A DNA stretch of 64,000 nt from an uncultured delta proteobacterium (GCA_963761335.1 CAVXGR010000013.1:96001-160000); one strand, 5' to 3'. Positions 10,075 to 17,403 are shown, numbered from the stretch's first letter. The notes: a model not told the origin generated them from the letters alone. Numbers and translations: made by a program.

Positions 10075-11646
10075 TTCCGCCATGCGCCGCAGCGCCGCCT
10101 TTTCCACCTTTCCGGTTCCGGTGCGCGGCACGTCGGCGTCGGCGATGAGAAACACCTGGCGCGGCACCTTGTAGCTGGCGAGGTTCTCGCGGCAGAAGGC
10201 GATCAGCTCGTCGGCCGTAGCGCTGGCGCTGGGCTGCAGCACGACGAAAGCGGCGACGTTCTCGCCGCGCGTCGGGTGCGGCACGCCGACCACGTGCGCC
10301 GCCTTCACGGCCGGGTGGCGGCCGAGCGCCTCCTCGACCTCGACGGCGGCGACGTTGACGCCGGCGGTCTTGATCACGTCCTTGAGGCGGGTGGCGAAGT
10401 GCAGATAACCGTCCTCGTCGAAGTAGCCGAGATCGCCGGTCCGGAAGAAACCTTCGGCGTCGAAGGTCTGTGTCCGCGGCAGGCGGTAATAGCCCTCCAT
10501 CAGCGTCGGCCCCTTGACGTGAATCTCGCCGCTCTCCCCCTGGGGCACCTCGGCGCGGGTCCCGGGATCGACGATGCGCACCTCCATTCCCGGCAGCGGC
10601 CGGCCGAAGCTGCCGGCGCGTACCGGCTCCGGATCGTCCCAGCGGGTCGCCGTGACCACCGTCGCCGTCTCCGACATGCCGTACACGCCTATGGCCTGAT
10701 GATCCGTGCCGAGAAGGCGCGGCGCCAGGGCGTGATAGGTGCCCTTCTTCAGGCGCAGGCGGCGGCGGCCGAACTCGGGATGCTCGAGCAGCGGTCCGGC
10801 CTGATGCCAGCCGGCCATCAGCGTGCAGCCCTCGCGCTCCAGCAGATCCAGCGCGCCACCGGCCTCCACCGATTCCTGCAGGACGATACGGCCGCCTCCG
10901 GCCAGCGTCGCGAGGGCGCCGAGGACGAATCCTCCACTCCAGAACAGCGGCATGTGTCCCCACCAGGCATCTTCCGCGCCGAGGCCGAAGCACTCGGCGA
11001 TGCGCCGGCCCGAGGTCGCCAGGGCGGCGTGGGCGTGCAGCACCGCTTTCGCCTGCGCCGTCGTTCCCGAGGTGAAGAAGATCGTCGCCCAGTCGACCGG
11101 GGACACCGCCGCCTCGACAGCGTCGAGAAAGGCGTCTTCGACGTCGTCGCGGAGATCGCCCCAGCGCTCGGCGCCCGCCGCCTCTCCCTCGAGAAGAGCG
11201 ATCCGGCGCAGCGCCGGCGCCGCCGCGGCGCGCAGCAACCCCGGTGTGGCGCTGCGCATTTCGGGGAGAATGTCGTTCAGGCTGGCGACATAGTCGTGCT
11301 TGCGAAACTCCGGCATACTCACCAGCATCTGCACATCGGCGTGGCGCAGCGCGTAGGCGATCTCGTCGCGCTTCCAGAGCGTCGAGAAGGGGACCAGCAC
11401 GGCGCCGAGGCGCAGGGCCCCGAAGGCGATCGGCAGCCATTCGGTGCGGTTCGAGCAGAGGAAGCCGACCCGCGTGCCCTTGCCGGCGCCGGCGGCGAGG
11501 AGCTTCTTGGCCGCGGTCCGGCTGGCGGCGCGCAGCTGCGCCCAGCTGAGCCGCGCCGTCACCTCGGCGCGCGGCGCGTAGGCCAGCGCCTCGCGCTCGG
11601 GGAAGCGCGAGGCGCAGGAATCGAGAAACCCGCCGAGCGTCTCCAT
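10033..11646 (-). CDS. Class I adenylate-forming enzyme (acyl-CoA ligase)
   Basis: Motifs FFTSGTT, YGMSET, RTGDLG and TGKVEK. Start METLGG overlaps the stop of the hydratase. Confidence 0.9.
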   Translation of the reverse strand: METLGGFLDSCASRFPEREALAYAPRAEVTARLSWAQLRAASRTAAKKLLAAGAGKGTRVGFLCSNRTEWLPIAFGALRLGAVLVPFSTLWKRDEIAYALRHADVQMLVSMPEFRKHDYVASLNDILPEMRSATPGLLRAAAAPALRRIALLEGEAAGAERWGDLRDDVEDAFLDAVEAAVSPVDWATIFFTSGTTAQAKAVLHAHAALATSGRRIAECFGLGAEDAWWGHMPLFWSGGFVLGALATLAGGGRIVLQESVEAGGALDLLEREGCTLMAGWHQAGPLLEHPEFGRRRLRLKKGTYHALAPRLLGTDHQAIGVYGMSETATVVTATRWDDPEPVRAGSFGRPLPGMEVRIVDPGTRAEVPQGESGEIHVKGPTLMEGYYRLPRTQTFDAEGFFRTGDLGYFDEDGYLHFATRLKDVIKTAGVNVAAVEVEEALGRHPAVKAAHVVGVPHPTRGENVAAFVVLQPSASATADELIAFCRENLASYKVPRQVFLIADADVPRTGTGKVEKAALRRMAEGDRLLLPGDVSSK

Positions 11647-12440
11647 CACTTCCCGGTGAACCGCGGCGGCCGCTTCTCGGCAAAGGCGCGCACCGCTTCC
11701 TTGTGGTCCTCGGTCTCGCCGAGAACGCCCTGGGCCAGGGCCTCCGCCTCGACTGCCTGGCGAAAGTCGGCGCGCGCGTTGCGTTCGAGCAGACCGCGCC
11801 CCAGGCGCGTCGCCTGCGGCGGCTGCGCGGCGATCGCCGCGGCGATCGCCGCCACCCGCTCGGCGAAACGCTCGACCTCGACCACCTCGGTGACCAGACC
11901 AATCCGCAGAGCCTCCGCCGCCGCCACAGGCTCCGCGGTCAGGAAGATGCGCTGCGCATTGGCGAGGCCGACACGGCGCGGCAGCAGGTAGGTGGTACCG
12001 CAGTCGGGCACGAAGCCGACCTTGACGAAGCTGAAGACGAAACGCGCCGCCGCCGATGCCACGGCGAAATCGCAGGCGAGCACGTAGGCGCACGCCATGC
12101 CGGCGGCGACGCCGTTCACCGCGGCGATCATCGGCTTCTGCCGCTGCAACAGCCGCTCGATTACACCGGCACCGTGGAGATTGCGCTGCCGGCCGACGAG
12201 CGCCGTGCGTCCCAGCCGATCGCCGCGCCCCATCAGCTTCAGGTCGGCGCCCGCCGAGAAGGCCCGGCCCGCACCGGTCATCACGATGGCGCGAATCGCT
12301 TCGTCGGCGTCCGCCTGGGCAACCAGATCCGCCAGCCGATCGCCCATCTCCGGCAGCAGCGCATTGAGCGCCTCGGGCCGGTTGAGAGTGATGGTGGCAA
12401 CCCCGCCGGCGGCTTCGTAGGTGACATGGGCTGAGGTCAT
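11646..12440 (-). CDS. Enoyl-CoA hydratase/isomerase family protein
   Basis: Motifs LNRPEALNAL, AFSAGADL, KPMIAAVNG and PDCG. Confidence 0.92.
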   Translation of the reverse strand: MTSAHVTYEAAGGVATITLNRPEALNALLPEMGDRLADLVAQADADEAIRAIVMTGAGRAFSAGADLKLMGRGDRLGRTALVGRQRNLHGAGVIERLLQRQKPMIAAVNGVAAGMACAYVLACDFAVASAAARFVFSFVKVGFVPDCGTTYLLPRRVGLANAQRIFLTAEPVAAAEALRIGLVTEVVEVERFAERVAAIAAAIAAQPPQATRLGRGLLERNARADFRQAVEAEALAQGVLGETEDHKEAVRAFAEKRPPRFTGK

Positions 12441-12560
12441 ACCCTCACCCTGACCCTCTCCCGCAAGGGAGGCGGGAGAGGGGACCTGTTACCGTGCCGG
12501 TGGAGCTTCCCCGCTGCGATCCCGGGTTCCCTCTCCCGCTCTTTCCGCGGGGGTTACCAT

Positions 12561-12905
12561 GTACGGCATGGTGATTGCCGCGGGGAGCTCGAACGCGAGG
12601 GGGGTTGGTAGCCTCCGCTCCCGCGGGCCTCAAGGACCATATTCCCCTCGTCGCCTCCCTGCGGTCGGCGCCGATTCCTCGCGGAACAAAATCGTCCTTG
12701 ACCCCCGCTCCGCTGCGGCTGGTGGGGGCTCCTATGGCGGAAAGGGAGACCTTTCCGCCTGCGGACAAGGCGGAACGCTCCACCCGGAGCAGAGGGGGCA
12801 GAGGCAACGCGTGCCTTATCGCGCCGAAAAGGGGAGCCTCCTTCTCAGAAACGCGAGACGCCACAGTGGCGTTCAGCAACGCTGCATCGCAGGCAGCAAA
12901 ACGGA
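12561..12905 (+). ncRNA. Candidate bridge/seek RNA region (left non-coding end of IS110)
   Basis: About 350 nt non-coding, GC-rich with hairpins, lying downstream of the -10 half of the junction promoter. Function inferred from IS110 biology. Confidence 0.45.
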
Positions 12906-12916
12906 AGGAGACTCCC

Positions 12917-14008
12917 ATGCGAAGATTAGTTCTAAAGCCCGTAGGCAAGCAACACCTCCCAACGCGCCCCGCCGCCGGCGAGAGCGTGATCATCGGTGTC
13001 GATCTGTCGCGCTCGAAATGGGTCTACACCTGTCGCTGGAGTGGGCTGGAGCAGCGGCGGCTGAGCACCCCCGGCGAGCTCTGCCACCTCCAAGCTCTGG
13101 CAGGCGAGTACCGGGGCTACGGCTGCCACGTGCACATCGTCTACGAGGCCTGCGGCTTCGGCTACGAGATCGCCTGGTGGGCGCAGGCGCAGGGACTCGA
13201 TGTGCTGGTGGTGCCGCCGAGCACCGTGGAGAAGGCACCCGGCAGCCACGTGAAGACCGATGGACACGACGCCAGCGGCCTGGCACTGCGCTACGAGAGA
13301 GGAATGCTCAAAGGCATCCACATTCCGGTCCGGAACTGTCACCAGCTGCGCCAGCTGTCGCGCACTTACGATGCCGCTCTGCGCGATCGCAAGAGACAGC
13401 AAGCCAGAGTGCGCATGCTGCTCCAAGAGCACGGATACATGCCGCCTGCGCCGAGCGCCGGCTGGTCGACGCTCGGGCAGTGGCTGGCGGCCCAGGAGTT
13501 CGCCCCCGCCCTCAAGGCCTGTGTGGCGCAGCTGCTCATCCTGCGCCAGAGCGCCGCGATGAGCACCAAGATGCTCAAGACAGAGCTGCTTGGGGTCGCT
13601 GCCCTGCCGCAGTACAAGCCACTGGTTCAGGCGCTCACCGCGCAGTCCGGTGTGGGCAAATTCACCGCGATTCGCTTCGTGCTCGAGGTGGGCGACATCC
13701 ATCGATTTGCCACCGCCGACTCCATCGTCAACTTCTACGGCCTCGCGCCCCAGGAGCACAGCACCGGCGACACCGTGCGACGGGGTCGGATTCGCAAGTG
13801 CGGTCCCGCCTTCATTCGCTCGTGGATCATCCAGTGCGCCTGGGTTGCTCGCGGTACCCGTGGCGATGCCGAGCTGCGGGAGTTCTACCAGAGACTGTGG
13901 CCGCGGGTCGGCAAGAAGAAGGCCATCGTGGCGGTGGCGCGCAAGCTGGCACTGCGGCTGCGAGCTCGCTGGCTCGCCTACGAGCGGAGCCAGGCGCAAG
14001 CGGCCTAG
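12917..14008 (+). CDS. IS110-family transposase/recombinase
   Basis: RuvC-like DEDD motifs (IIGVDL, YEACG, KTDGHD) and C-terminal domain (GVG...GDIHRF...GLAP.EHSTG...AVARKL). AAGGAG RBS before ATG 12917. Confidence 0.93.
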   Translation: MRRLVLKPVGKQHLPTRPAAGESVIIGVDLSRSKWVYTCRWSGLEQRRLSTPGELCHLQALAGEYRGYGCHVHIVYEACGFGYEIAWWAQAQGLDVLVVPPSTVEKAPGSHVKTDGHDASGLALRYERGMLKGIHIPVRNCHQLRQLSRTYDAALRDRKRQQARVRMLLQEHGYMPPAPSAGWSTLGQWLAAQEFAPALKACVAQLLILRQSAAMSTKMLKTELLGVAALPQYKPLVQALTAQSGVGKFTAIRFVLEVGDIHRFATADSIVNFYGLAPQEHSTGDTVRRGRIRKCGPAFIRSWIIQCAWVARGTRGDAELREFYQRLWPRVGKKKAIVAVARKLALRLRARWLAYERSQAQAA

Positions 14009-14315
14009 ACTCTTGTTCATCGACCACCAACCCGCTCCGCATCCGGCAGGCTGTCCCCTCGAGCGACTGCGTCTGGCCCTCTGGTTGCGCCGCAAGGTGC
14101 CAACGTTCGGGAGTTTTGCAGCGCTCGGCAATATCCAACGGGACGAATGATAACTTGGTGACCGTCCCCACACGAGGACGCGCACGAATAGAAGACTCGC
14201 CACCGACGGATCGGAGCCCAGAACAGAGCGAGGGCGTACATGACCACTTGACAAGAGCCGTCATAGAAGAGGGTCAGGGTGAGGGCCAAACCCACCGAGT
14301 TACGGCGCAGCATCT

Positions 14316-15512
14316 TCACCCGCATGCCCCCGCGGCGCGCAGCGCCTCGATCTCCTCGTCCGACTTGCCCAGCTGCCGCAGCACCTCCAGGGTGTGCTCG
14401 GCAAGCCCGGGCGGCGGGATGCGCAGCGAGCCGGGCGTGTCGCTCATGTGGATGGGGACGTTCATGGTGCGAAACGGACCGTGCTTCGGATGCTCCCACT
14501 CGGCGACCGAGCCGATCGCCTTCAGCTGCTCCATCTCGAAGAGCTCCTTCAAGTCGTTCACCCGGCACGAGGGCACGTCGTAATCGGTGCACAGCTTGAT
14601 CCAGTGATCGCGCCCGCGCGTGCGGAAGATCTCCTGCAGGACGGAGACGACCTCGTCTCGGTTCTGACAGCGCACCGTGTTGCTGGCGAACTTCGGGTTC
14701 TCGAGCAGGTCCTCGCGGCCGAGCGCCGCGCAGAGGCGTTTGAAGAAGGCATTGGAGAGGCAGGCGACGATGAAGTAGCCGTCGTTCGCCTCGAAGGCCT
14801 GGTAGGGAACCAGATCCGGATGTCCATTGCCGAACTTCTGGTACTCGTGCCCGGTGTTCAGGTACGAGGTCGAGATGTCGGCGAGGAGCGAGATCACCGC
14901 ATCGAGCATGGTGAGATGGATGCGCTGGCCGACGCCGCTCTCCTTGCGGTGATACAGCGCCAGGGCGATGGCGTAGGCGGCATAGATGCCGGAGGAGATG
15001 TCGGCAACCGGGCCGGCGGCCTTGACCGGCGGCCCACCGGGAAAGCCGGAGAGGCCCATCATGCCACCGGTGGCCTGCAGGATGAGGTCCATGCCCGGGT
15101 TCTGCGCGATCGGGCCCGTCTCTCCGAAGGCGGTGATGGAGGTGTAGATGAGGCGCGGATTGACGGTGCGCAGGTGCTCGTAGCCGAGGCCGAGCCGATC
15201 CATGACGCCGGGGCGGAAGTTTTCCACCAGCACGTCGGCGCTCTTCACCATCTCCTCGAGCAGCTTCACTCCGCCCGGCTTCTTGACGTCGACGCCGACC
15301 GACTTCTTGTTGCGGTTCAGGCCCCAGAAGTTGAAGCTGCCGATGATCGGATCCTGTCCGCGCGCGTGGCGAATGGCGTCGCCGCGACCCGGCTTCTCGA
15401 TCTTCCACACCTCGGCACCCATGTCGCCGAGGAGCGTCGTGCACCACGGCCCGGCGGCCTGGTGGCTCAGGTCGATGACGCGCACGCCCTTAAGCGGTCC
15501 GCGGTTCTCCAT
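14316..15512 (-). CDS. CaiB/BaiF family III CoA-transferase
   Basis: Motifs PLKGVRVIDLS, NRNKKS, ENFRPG and GMDLILQA. Confidence 0.92.
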   Translation of the reverse strand: MENRGPLKGVRVIDLSHQAAGPWCTTLLGDMGAEVWKIEKPGRGDAIRHARGQDPIIGSFNFWGLNRNKKSVGVDVKKPGGVKLLEEMVKSADVLVENFRPGVMDRLGLGYEHLRTVNPRLIYTSITAFGETGPIAQNPGMDLILQATGGMMGLSGFPGGPPVKAAGPVADISSGIYAAYAIALALYHRKESGVGQRIHLTMLDAVISLLADISTSYLNTGHEYQKFGNGHPDLVPYQAFEANDGYFIVACLSNAFFKRLCAALGREDLLENPKFASNTVRCQNRDEVVSVLQEIFRTRGRDHWIKLCTDYDVPSCRVNDLKELFEMEQLKAIGSVAEWEHPKHGPFRTMNVPIHMSDTPGSLRIPPPGLAEHTLEVLRQLGKSDEEIEALRAAGACG

Positions 15513-17040
15513 GACTCTCCCCCTCACTCAGCTTCTGCCTGAGCACGTTGGTCTGCACTTTGTTGGCGGCATTGCGCGGCAGCACCGCGACAAACTCGAC
15601 GCGGCGTGGCTTCTTGAATCCGGACAAGGTGGTTGCCGCAAACGCCACCAGCGCCTCGGCATCGACAGCGGCGCCGGCGCGGCGGACGACGACGGCGGTT
15701 ACCTGCTCGCCCCACTTCGGATGTGGTGTGCCGATCACGGCGACGTCCTCAACGTCCGGATGGGCGCGCAGGACGTCCTCCACCTCCACCGGCGAGACGT
15801 TCTCGCCACCGGTGATGATCAGGTCCTTGACCCTGCCGGTGATGAAGAAAAAGCCCTCGGCGTTCCGCCGGCCGAGGTCGCCGGTGTGCAGCCAGCCGTC
15901 GCGGATGGCGGCGGCGGTGGCGGCACGGTCGCGGTAATAGCCCTGCATGACGGTCGGGCCGCCGATGACCAGCTCTCCTTCTTCGTCGGGGCCGGCGAAG
16001 CTGCCGTCGGCACGGCGCACGGCGACGGCGACGTAGGGATTCATGCGGCCCACCGTCCCCTCATGATCGAAGATGCTGGTGCCGCGCGCCATGGCCACGC
16101 CGTCGGTCGACTCCGACTGCCCGTACGCTTCGATCACCTCGGCACCGTCGAAGAGCCGCGCCAGAGCGCGCTTCGCCTGCATCGGTGTGGCGGCGCCGCC
16201 GACGCTGACCTTGCTCACGCAGCGGCGGACACCGGCGGGGATATCCTTCCGCGTCGCAACGTCGAACACCATGCCGGCAATCAGCGGCAGGTCGGTCACC
16301 CGGAAGCGCTCGACGGCTTCGAGCACCTGGTCGACGGCAAACTTCTCGATCAGCACGGCGCTGGCGCCGGTGAGCATGCGGCAGAGCAGGTGGGACACGA
16401 ACACGGGCGTGTGCGTCAGCGGGCTCAGGCAGGCGCCGACGGACGCCGCCGTGTCGCCACGCGCCTCGGCGCAGGCCAGCGCCGACCAGAGGAGGTTGCC
16501 GTGACTGATCATCACCCCCTTGGGTGCTCCGGTGGTTCCCGAGGTGTAGGCGAGCACCGCCAGCGAGTCGGCAGCGGGCGTGCGCGGCGACGCCGGGCGC
16601 ACGCTGGCGCGGCGCAGCGCTCGCGGCCGCAGCGGCAGCTCGGCCTCGCAGGCAAAAGCGGGAATTCCGGCGCAGGCCGCCGCCTCCCGCGCCACCGGCG
16701 CCCGCGCCGCATCGCACAAAAGAGCGGCCGCCTGCGAGCGCTCCAGCAGGACTCCGGTCTCCCGCGCCGTCGAGCGCACGCCGATGGGGACGGCGACGGC
16801 GCCGAGGCCCCACACCGCGAAGCTCGCGGCGACCAGCGCCGGTTGGTTCGCCGCCATGATGCCGAGGCGCTGCCCGCCGCCGATGCCGCGCTTCGCCAGC
16901 CAGTGCGCCAGCTCGTCGACCGCTGCGGCGAGCTCGCCGTAGACGATGTGGCGGCCGCCGAAGAAGAGACCGCCTTCGCCCCCGCGCCGCTGCGCCTGCA
17001 GGCGCAGGAAATCGGGGGTACTGGGGAGGAGAAGGCTCAT
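15490..17040 (-). CDS. Class I adenylate-forming enzyme (acyl-CoA ligase)
   Basis: Motifs YTSGTTGAPKG, YGQSE, HTGDLG and GGENVSP. Confidence 0.9.
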   Translation of the reverse strand: MSLLLPSTPDFLRLQAQRRGGEGGLFFGGRHIVYGELAAAVDELAHWLAKRGIGGGQRLGIMAANQPALVAASFAVWGLGAVAVPIGVRSTARETGVLLERSQAAALLCDAARAPVAREAAACAGIPAFACEAELPLRPRALRRASVRPASPRTPAADSLAVLAYTSGTTGAPKGVMISHGNLLWSALACAEARGDTAASVGACLSPLTHTPVFVSHLLCRMLTGASAVLIEKFAVDQVLEAVERFRVTDLPLIAGMVFDVATRKDIPAGVRRCVSKVSVGGAATPMQAKRALARLFDGAEVIEAYGQSESTDGVAMARGTSIFDHEGTVGRMNPYVAVAVRRADGSFAGPDEEGELVIGGPTVMQGYYRDRAATAAAIRDGWLHTGDLGRRNAEGFFFITGRVKDLIITGGENVSPVEVEDVLRAHPDVEDVAVIGTPHPKWGEQVTAVVVRRAGAAVDAEALVAFAATTLSGFKKPRRVEFVAVLPRNAANKVQTNVLRQKLSEGESHGEPRTA

Positions 17041-17046
17041 GGGGAG

Positions 17047-17403
17047 GGGGACAGTGTGTCATGAACCTGCGGTTCACCAACAGACCATGAATAGGGACGG
17101 CGTCCTGATTCACTGATCAGACACTTGCGATGATATTTCCGCGCCGCGGGTGCGGGTCTCCTCTCCCCGCATCTTTCCGCGGGGAGAGGATCAAGGTGAG
17201 GGGTCCCTGTCTCGCTGAAAGCTCGTGAATCTCCACGGCCTTCACAGAGATCGGCACCCTCACCCTGACCCTCTCCCGCCAGTAATGCGGGAGAGGGAAC
17301 GCACCCCCGAAGTGCACACCCAACAGATGTTCGAAGCAGGCAACTCTTGCCGCTGATCTTGCAGCGACAGGGTGAATCTGGGCAGCAAAAGTAGCCTGTC
17401 CCC
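17047..17403 (+). mobile_element. REP doublet interrupted by a 285-bp variant of the CAG-inserting element (17055-17339)
   Basis: Same ends as 36584-37010 (TGTGTCATGAACCTGCGGTTCACCAACAGAC ... CCCAACAGATGTTCGAAGCAG) but the interior holds CCCTCACCCTGACCCTCTCCCGC-type REPs. Confidence 0.7.

Follow-up and report, generated by a model that had tools for sequence, protein, structure and literature searches.

A multicopy IS110-family insertion sequence of IS1111 type at a fixed position in a repetitive extragenic palindrome, with a candidate guide RNA downstream of its transposase gene

The window analysed here is a stretch of 64,000 nucleotides (nt) from the genome of an uncultured delta proteobacterium (GCA_963761335.1 CAVXGR010000013.1:96001-160000; G000:C13:96001-160000). 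An insertion sequence (IS) of 1716 bp occupies positions 12552-14267 on the plus strand, where it interrupts a repetitive extragenic palindrome (REP) in the intergenic region between two minus-strand genes, located upstream (14316-15527) and downstream (11646-12440). The following features can be distinguished at the insertion site and in the coding part of the element:

12529..12551, plus strand: left part of the target REP, comprising the left arm CCCTCTCCCGC, the loop tctttcc and GCGGG, the first five bases of the right arm (left target)
12552..12553, plus strand: left core dinucleotide GG, carried by the element and present in all eight left junctions of its clade (the five own copies and loci L057, L058 and L059)
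12917..14008, plus strand: transposase gene (363 amino acids) with DEDD (RuvC-like) and Tnp20 domains and the motif GLAPQEHSTG
14268..14285, plus strand: right part of the target REP, comprising the core AG (14268-14269), the right target AGGGTCAG and the flank GGTGAGGG

Five full copies of the element are present in the genome, on contigs C13 (this window), C24, C7, C27 and C18. When compared over 1715 bases, three of these are identical, while the other two carry the same two differences. GCGGG precedes GGTTACC in all five copies and AGAGGGTCAGGGT follows CATAGA in all four with a readable right flank, the contig of the C27 copy ending three bases past the element. In the window, CCCTCTCCCGC-tctttcc-GCGGG at the left junction is followed by GGTTACCATGT, which starts with GGTTACC, while the right end GCCGTCATAGA (...CATAGA), finishing at 14267, is followed by AGAGGGTCAGGGTGAGGG. 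The sequences GCGGGGGTTACC and CATAGAAGAGGG each occur five times in the genome, the fifth occurrence of the latter being a remnant on C15 and not the C27 copy. All five copies are located at one and the same position of the REP arm, GCGGG|AGAGGG, and removal of the element gives back the palindrome without leaving additional bases, which shows insertion without target-site duplication. The restored arm with its flank, GCGGGAGAGGGTCAGGGTGAGGG, is found uninterrupted at 38 places in the genome. A preliminary description of this stretch had deduced the ends 12552 and 14267 and the regeneration of the REP arm upon excision, and had proposed that other genomic copies be aligned. This alignment was made and both deductions hold: boundaries and target are the same in all copies and none is inserted at an unrelated sequence, a pattern far beyond chance. 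Contigs from soil metagenomes also carry the element, with breaks at 12546/7 and 14285, and as these possibly derive from the same sample as the genome they do not constitute independent evidence. The element is absent from both other genomes of the host's family, and no close relatives were found among the genomes compared.

The transposase matches PF01548 (DEDD_Tnp_IS110; 41.3 bits, cutoff 29) in its N-terminal part and PF02371 (Transposase_20; 73.9 bits, cutoff 21.3) in its C-terminal part, as well as the NCBIfam model NF033542, 'IS110 family RNA-guided transposase' (190.7 bits, cutoff 140), which upholds the earlier assignment to the IS110 family. An AAGGAG site supports the gene start at 12917, which is also conserved in a diverged remnant on contig C4. 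Four residues, D29, E77, D115 and D118, are invariant in a five-sequence alignment and, judging by motif context, probably form the DEDD set. The C-terminal motif GL-P----S/T-G ends in SG in 60 loci and in TG in 19, including those of the element's own clade, while a single SA match, in L016, belongs to another reading frame. Relatives in the nearest species-representative genomes share 47-55% identity, and a metagenome scan yielded 80 further loci at 46-89% identity. The best plasmid-borne relatives from cultured bacteria reach ~30% identity and the nearest database proteins are unnamed. Members of the clade come almost exclusively from uncultured bacteria of soil and sediment. A left terminus reading RG-TTACCATGT is common to the relatives, whose left ends are in most cases only ~80-130 nt long. 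The remnant on C4 (C4:120381-120993, minus strand) is a truncated relative with 51% identity that retains the first 168 residues only; it shares the left terminus TTACCATGT, here preceded by AG, and its left end comprises only ~110 bases.

The region downstream of the transposase gene, 14059-14205 on the plus strand, is predicted to encode a guide RNA of ~150 nt (147 nt as delimited), corresponding to the bridge or seek RNA of other IS110-family elements. Its parts are:

14059..14128, plus strand: target-binding stem-loop with an outer stem, an internal loop and an inner hairpin
14073..14082, plus strand: top-strand target guide CTGGCCCTCT, the complement of AG-AGGGCCAG (core and right target)
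14107..14113, plus strand: bottom-strand target guide TCGGG-AG, in the same sense as the left target and core
14139..14205, plus strand: donor-binding stem-loop of the same RNA
14147..14155, plus strand: putative top-strand donor guide ATGATAACT, which by analogy would pair with the core and TTA.CAT of the left end
14188..14194, plus strand: bottom-strand donor guide ATAGA-AG (listed to 14195 with an additional A), equal to the last five bases of the element and the core

Both stem-loops are retained in 58 relatives, where short variable segments lie between the parts of a conserved scaffold, and both comprise an inner hairpin besides a large internal loop. RNAalifold analysis of these 58 sequences recovered 18 base pairs, seven of them with compensatory changes, covering the first outer stem and the second hairpin. 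The inner hairpin of the target loop was missed, since the alignment is out of structural register there; when the sequences were checked one by one, it was found in 56/58, in the form of 53 distinct sequences. The 5′ segment of the first loop ends in CU and the 3′ segment in AG. The latter agrees with the left flank of its own locus at 4.16/6 positions, as opposed to 1.58 with the flanks of other loci (57 loci), while the complementarity of the 5′ segment to its own right flank amounts to 6.54/8, as opposed to 4.04 for other loci (48 loci; the best of seven registers was taken for own and other loci alike). In 52 of the 53 loci, the 3′ 5-mer of the donor loop is identical to the terminal five bases of the element, with five variants (ATAGC, ATAGG, ATAAC, ATAGA and ATGGC) tracking the element end. 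The 10-nt top-strand guide in the window is perfectly complementary to AGAGGGCCAG REPs, and a match of this length was obtained in 10/500 shuffles. This top-strand match lies 5′ of the bottom-strand match, which is the order described for IS1111 elements (PMC11187229). The target GCGGG|AGAGG and donor ATAGA|GGTTA named in the preliminary description agree with both the guides and the family-wide comparison. Its analogy with the RNA guiding of IS621 is borne out as far as a guide RNA with target and donor matches is concerned, but not in architecture, the RNA being placed in the right end as in the IS1111 type.

The ends of the element carry the following features:

12554..12567, plus strand: conserved left terminus TTACCATGT, including a -10-like TACCAT (12555-12560) and the left subterminal inverted repeat ATGTACGGC (12559-12567)
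14248..14253, plus strand: TTGACA -35 box, 14 bases from the right end
14257..14267, plus strand: right subterminal inverted repeat GCCGTCAT and terminal AGA

The two subterminal repeats (GCCGT-CAT and ATG-T-ACGGC) agree at 8/9 positions with one bulge. They covary among 45 loci, with matched pairs scoring 3.47/5 and mismatched pairs 1.55, and an exact TTGACA is located at a fixed distance in 33 of these 45. A simple scan of the linear element revealed neither a sigma-70-like promoter nor a terminator. A circular form is predicted in which the right-end TTGACA and the left-end TACCAT would be joined with a spacing of 17 bases, counting the two core bases and one T, and would thereby create a junction promoter, as is known for the circle of the IS110 family (PMC11208160; PMC11208158).

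Subterminal inverted repeats of 7-17 bp, a downstream guide RNA and the GL-P----S(t)G motif are given as features of the IS1111 group in the relevant sections of PMC11187229 and PMC11208160. As subterminal inverted repeats, the motif GL-P----TG and a guide RNA downstream of the transposase gene can all be recognised here, sequence features assign the element to the IS1111 type of the IS110 family and not to the IS621-like group. The IS110 group proper has its guide RNA in the left end and inverted repeats that are very short or absent, neither of which applies here.

AG is the dinucleotide on which the guides overlap, and it is likewise called for at this position by the palindrome. The right junction reads CATAGA-AG-AGGG, while the left reads GCGGG-GG-TTACC. 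Core dinucleotides are AG or GG at every readable junction, left or right, with AG at the left junction of most relatives and GG in the element's own clade and in a second clade (L113, L116 and L126). In L058, too, the interrupted palindrome needs an A where the left junction shows a G. Since the palindrome demands A but the left junction holds G, the first left core base moves with the element, while the right one is derived from the target, and the ends 12552-14267 and the insertion point GCGGG|AGAGGG are therefore the right description. This also explains why no duplicated dinucleotide is seen. The preliminary description, which had reported no duplicated core, was thus right for the full dinucleotide, but both junctions do carry an imperfect RG (GG at 12552-12553 and AG at 14268-14269). 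The purine at the first core position would fit the conserved U of the top-strand guides, with which it could form U-A or U-G pairs. In the metagenomic data, the near-identical loci L061 and L062 share the same flank but differ in the first core base of the right junction (AG versus GG), which reflects either polymorphism at a single insertion or two alternative products of the same reaction.

The inheritance of the core bases would place the effective crossover 5′ of the core, with the first base of the left junction contributed by the element and that of the right junction by the target. Such a one-way outcome may result from the transfer of one defined strand, or from strongly biased mismatch repair following a two-strand exchange. 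Cleavage of the top strands in IS621 takes place after the core (PMC11208158); a cut of this kind, if the top strand alone were to decide, would give the opposite core inheritance. Both the guide order and the core inheritance are reversed relative to IS621, which fits the transfer of one defined strand, and single-strand transfer has been argued for another element (bioRxiv 10.1101/2025.10.25.684509).

The left end of the element is unusually built and contains two further features:

12604..12765, plus strand: structured leader module within the extended left end, also present in ISL3-family elements of other genomes
12832..12846, plus strand: anti-Shine-Dalgarno stretch, predicted to pair with 12903-12916, including the AAGGAG at 12905-12910

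This left end folds far better than shuffled sequences (z -4.5) and is highly conserved in the element's own clade. The predicted sequestering of the AAGGAG of the transposase gene is likewise conserved in that clade. The ~160 bases of the module recur at 77-82% identity in three other genomes from the taxonomic order of the host; with a short partial match in a fourth and the copy described here, the module is represented in 5/52 genomes. In genome G005, which harbors two copies (L141 and L156), and in G011 (L166) the module is located upstream of the same downstream sequence, and the open reading frame that follows it in G005 matches ISL3-family transposase domains, while the copy in G028 (L142) adjoins a DUF3731 gene. 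Among the other IS loci searched, the module was found only in L057-L059. The fold of eight module sequences comprises 42 base pairs, of which 16 show compensatory changes, and no Rfam family matched the module. It looks like a portable structured leader that has been exchanged between unrelated insertion sequences.

The locus as a whole is, with high confidence, best explained by an active or recently active IS110-family element of the IS1111 type with RNA-guided targeting of the REP. We infer that its DEDD transposase would be guided by the bridge (seek) RNA encoded at 14059-14205, one internal loop of which would pair with both strands of the REP target, while the second, similarly built loop would pair with the ends of the element as joined in the circle (...ATAGA-RG-TTACC...). 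Recombination would then occur at the RG dinucleotide between GCGGG and AGAGGG, leaving no target duplication. Several observations weigh against this explanation. With 365 nt, the left end exceeds the right end (259 nt) in length. This is unusual for the IS1111 type, whose definition calls for the downstream non-coding region to be the longer of the two; the excess is accounted for by the acquired leader module, and PMC11187229 describes exceptions of this sort. The bottom-strand target guide matches only 6/7 positions, and at each of the four occupied sites whose flank is readable the top-strand guide includes a G-T wobble. Compared with shuffled sequences, neither the whole right end (z -0.98) nor the 147-nt RNA region (z -1.03) is particularly stable, while the two halves of the RNA taken alone reach z -2.4 and -2.3. 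In L065, L067 and the L015 group the match to the flank is one base off, so that the core register given here may not apply to the family as a whole. The top-strand donor guide is placed by analogy only, covariation being absent because the left end is nearly invariant. The Rfam search returned no family at gathering score, its only hits being weak microRNA models in the REP hairpins and one internal ribosome entry site model in the gene, and a search of sequencing runs found the element sequence in no RNA run, only in Logan contigs of soil metagenomes. Neither the circle junction nor an empty-site joint was seen in the soil-metagenome contigs examined.

The unusual left end raises the question of whether the architecture could instead be that of IS621, with the guide RNA in the long structured left end (12552-12916) and the right end a mere terminus. 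The length and strong folding of this region would suit such an arrangement, as would the CCGCGGG it contains, a 7-nt same-sense match to the left target, and the 26 elements with two long non-coding regions noted in PMC11187229. However, most relatives show the same site-specific pattern with left ends of only ~80-130 nt, the extra module of ~160 nt being confined to the own clade (L057-L059) and to unrelated ISL3 elements. A search for guides in the left end gave just short GC-rich matches unsupported by the relatives, and in a comparison by eye between this element and L057/L058, which have differing right targets, no left-end segment tracks the target, whereas the right-end loops covary with the flanks. 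We consider this arrangement very improbable. Slightly less credible still is the recognition of the REP by the protein as a DNA hairpin, in the manner of the RAYT or IS200/IS605 enzymes, with the RNA-like matches being coincidental. While the target is indeed a palindrome and the element carries a hairpin at its own end (12552-12576), relatives are inserted between flanks that are neither related nor palindromic and that correspond to the loop segments of the respective element, and the protein has no HUH fold, its DEDD and Tnp20 domains being those found in RNA-guided IS110 transposases.

The REP family targeted by the element is a short imperfect palindrome with 168 arm matches, forming ~84 hairpins of CCCTCTCCCGC-loop-GCGGGAGAGGG genome-wide. 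An uninterrupted member lies immediately beside the interrupted one:

12442..12482, minus strand: uninterrupted REP of the same family with an CCCTCACCCTGA flank, forming an inverted doublet with the interrupted REP and representing an empty TCAG-type target

Empty targets of this family are located at 12454-12482 and 17269-17297, both on the minus strand. The CCCTCACCCTGA that the preliminary description had placed at 12443 is present, but at 12442-12453, while the related REP it reported at 17161-17202 is a palindrome, but one of a sister family with arms longer by one G/C (CCTCTCCCCGC/GCGGGGAGAGG). The sister family accounts for 178 arm matches in hairpins genome-wide and its members are often found ~70 bases from a REP of the first family, inside a composite repeat of 220-300 bases. 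Of the flanking genes, 11646-12440 looks crotonase-like and 14316-15527 CoA-transferase-like by sequence, and the insertion may be polar on the former, which is located downstream.

Among the REP hairpins with an arm beside NCAGGGT, 52 are canonical while 11 are altered, showing extra or changed bases that end in A right before AGAGGG:

C5:446314, C11:468252, C11:459516, C11:394632 and C18:275315: REPs with an inserted A (+A; five)
C18:999752: REP with inserted GA (+GA; one)
C17:162650: REP with inserted GGA (+GGA; one)
C5:87257, C7:86452 and C18:237464: REPs with GGA in place of GGG (three)
C15:419596-419650, outside the window: REP with TCATAGA, CCCTCTCCCGC-attgtttc-GCG-TCATAGA-AGAGGGCCAGGGT (one)

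The counts were restricted to REP hairpins, and a looser test of arm orientation was dropped, as its pattern also caught the sister family. The inserted bases, one to seven in number, equal the element termini (GG...A). The C15 REP, which matches the guide perfectly, holds the last seven bases of the element, TCATAGA, at the insertion point and has lost two G of the arm; what remains there derives from a copy since lost. That the terminal A is part of the element can be deduced from its covariation with the donor guide and its fixed distance from the -35 box. A one-base core (G) with the +A REPs as the true target was considered and rejected on the same covariation and on the preserved 14-base distance. 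Eight of the 11 CCAG REPs, to which the guide matches perfectly, are marked, as opposed to 3/41 TCAG REPs (Fisher p 3e-5), and the occupied sites with a readable flank are all of the TCAG type (4/4).

We weighed whether the marks record visits of the element, which we regard as somewhat favoured: they would be remnants of imprecise element loss at the best targets. Alternatively, they could represent a sub-lineage of ordinary REPs, or products of slippage, and we rate this as possible though less probable. Slippage can yield a single A beside an A, two of the +A loci have identical near flanks, and many marked REPs belong to one composite repeat family with downstream flanks that are 90-97% identical, so that some may share descent. 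Length-neutral or shorter forms with A are also seen in three of the 118 other arms (GGA twice and GA once). However, apart from a single +G in a G-run, arm insertions are limited to the insertion point, with none at the mirror point and none in the 178 sister-family arms. The inserted bases are moreover those at the termini of the element, with the last seven present in the C15 REP, the marks are enriched in CCAG REPs, and canonical REPs of the composite family interleave with marked ones in similarity. A more comprehensive scenario, to which we give an even chance, holds that exit of the element is not always clean, and that the guide-perfect AGAGGGCCAG REPs, most of which it would already have visited, keep one to seven end bases (+A, +GA, +GGA and TCATAGA). 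These would shift the guide matches apart, such that the best targets are gradually spent and the element persists in wobble-matched ones, with the left core base serving as a natural tracer of how the product of IS1111-type recombination is decided, be it by a single defined strand or by a crossover fixed 5′ of the core. A limited literature search returned no report of footprints of IS1111 elements, and the words 'scar' and 'footprint' are absent from the text available for PMC13626964. At C12:785206-785247, AGAGGGTCAGGG (AGAGGGTCAGGGTGAGGG) is directly adjoined by a 24-base stretch similar to the right end of a related element (TTGACA ... CCATGGC). Neither a left REP half nor an element body is nearby, and the stretch is a solo right-end remnant that a second member of the family has left at this REP position.

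As an insertion sequence the element is ordinary, REP-targeting IS110/IS1111 elements and guide RNAs having already been described. Repeats of the REP, BIME and REPIN kinds, with short extragenic palindromes in dozens of copies, were reportedly recognised as specific insertion sites by Tobes and Pareja in 2006; the REPs of the uncultured soil bacterium considered here belong to another sequence family. The element provides a well-resolved natural example, in which the ends, a 15-base target (CGGG-AG-AGGGYCAG) and four candidate guide segments can be read from the DNA. Together with the covariation in dozens of relatives, and at ~30% identity to characterised members, it offers a defined pair of recombinase and putative RNA. 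The one-way inheritance of the core base bears on the choice between a two-strand exchange through a Holliday junction and a single-strand transfer (PMC11208158 versus bioRxiv 10.1101/2025.10.25.684509). The footprints, if true, would indicate that the loss of such elements is not always seamless.

The closest parallels are found in ISEc11, ISPa11 and ISKpn4, the IS1111-group seekRNA elements of Siddiquee et al. 2024 (PMC11187229), of which ISPa11 is named among the elements with a defined repeated target. The comparison is by description, the ~30% identity given above being that of the best plasmid-borne relatives. As described there, these elements likewise possess a DEDD transposase with the GL-P----S/T-G motif, subterminal inverted repeats and a downstream guide RNA whose top-strand match is located 5′ of the bottom-strand match and overlaps it in the target, and they insert without target duplication. 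The present element differs in its long left end with a foreign leader module, in its RG core with a mismatched first base, and in that a donor loop can be recognised alongside the target loop.

With the IS621 bridge RNA (Durrant et al. 2024, PMC11208160; Hiraizumi et al. 2024, PMC11208158), the candidate RNA would share a build with two internal loops, one for the target and one for the donor, both of which base-pair to either DNA strand with an overlap at the core dinucleotide. A strict second and relaxed first core base, a junction promoter in the circle and a REP target are further points of agreement with the published accounts of IS621. According to these accounts, however, IS621 carries its RNA in the left end, with the opposite guide order, a CT core and inverted repeats of only 2-3 bp. 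ISPpu9 and ISPpu10 of Pseudomonas putida (PMC12288879) are also IS110-family elements at a fixed REP position, often in REP doublets, and ISPpu9 has a comparable long structured 5′ leader, which in that element blocks translation. In contrast to the element described here, ISPpu9 is placed by the same source in the IS110 group, without inverted repeats and with no junction promoter found, and the left dinucleotide of ISPpu9 and ISPpu10 is AG rather than the GG carried by the present element.

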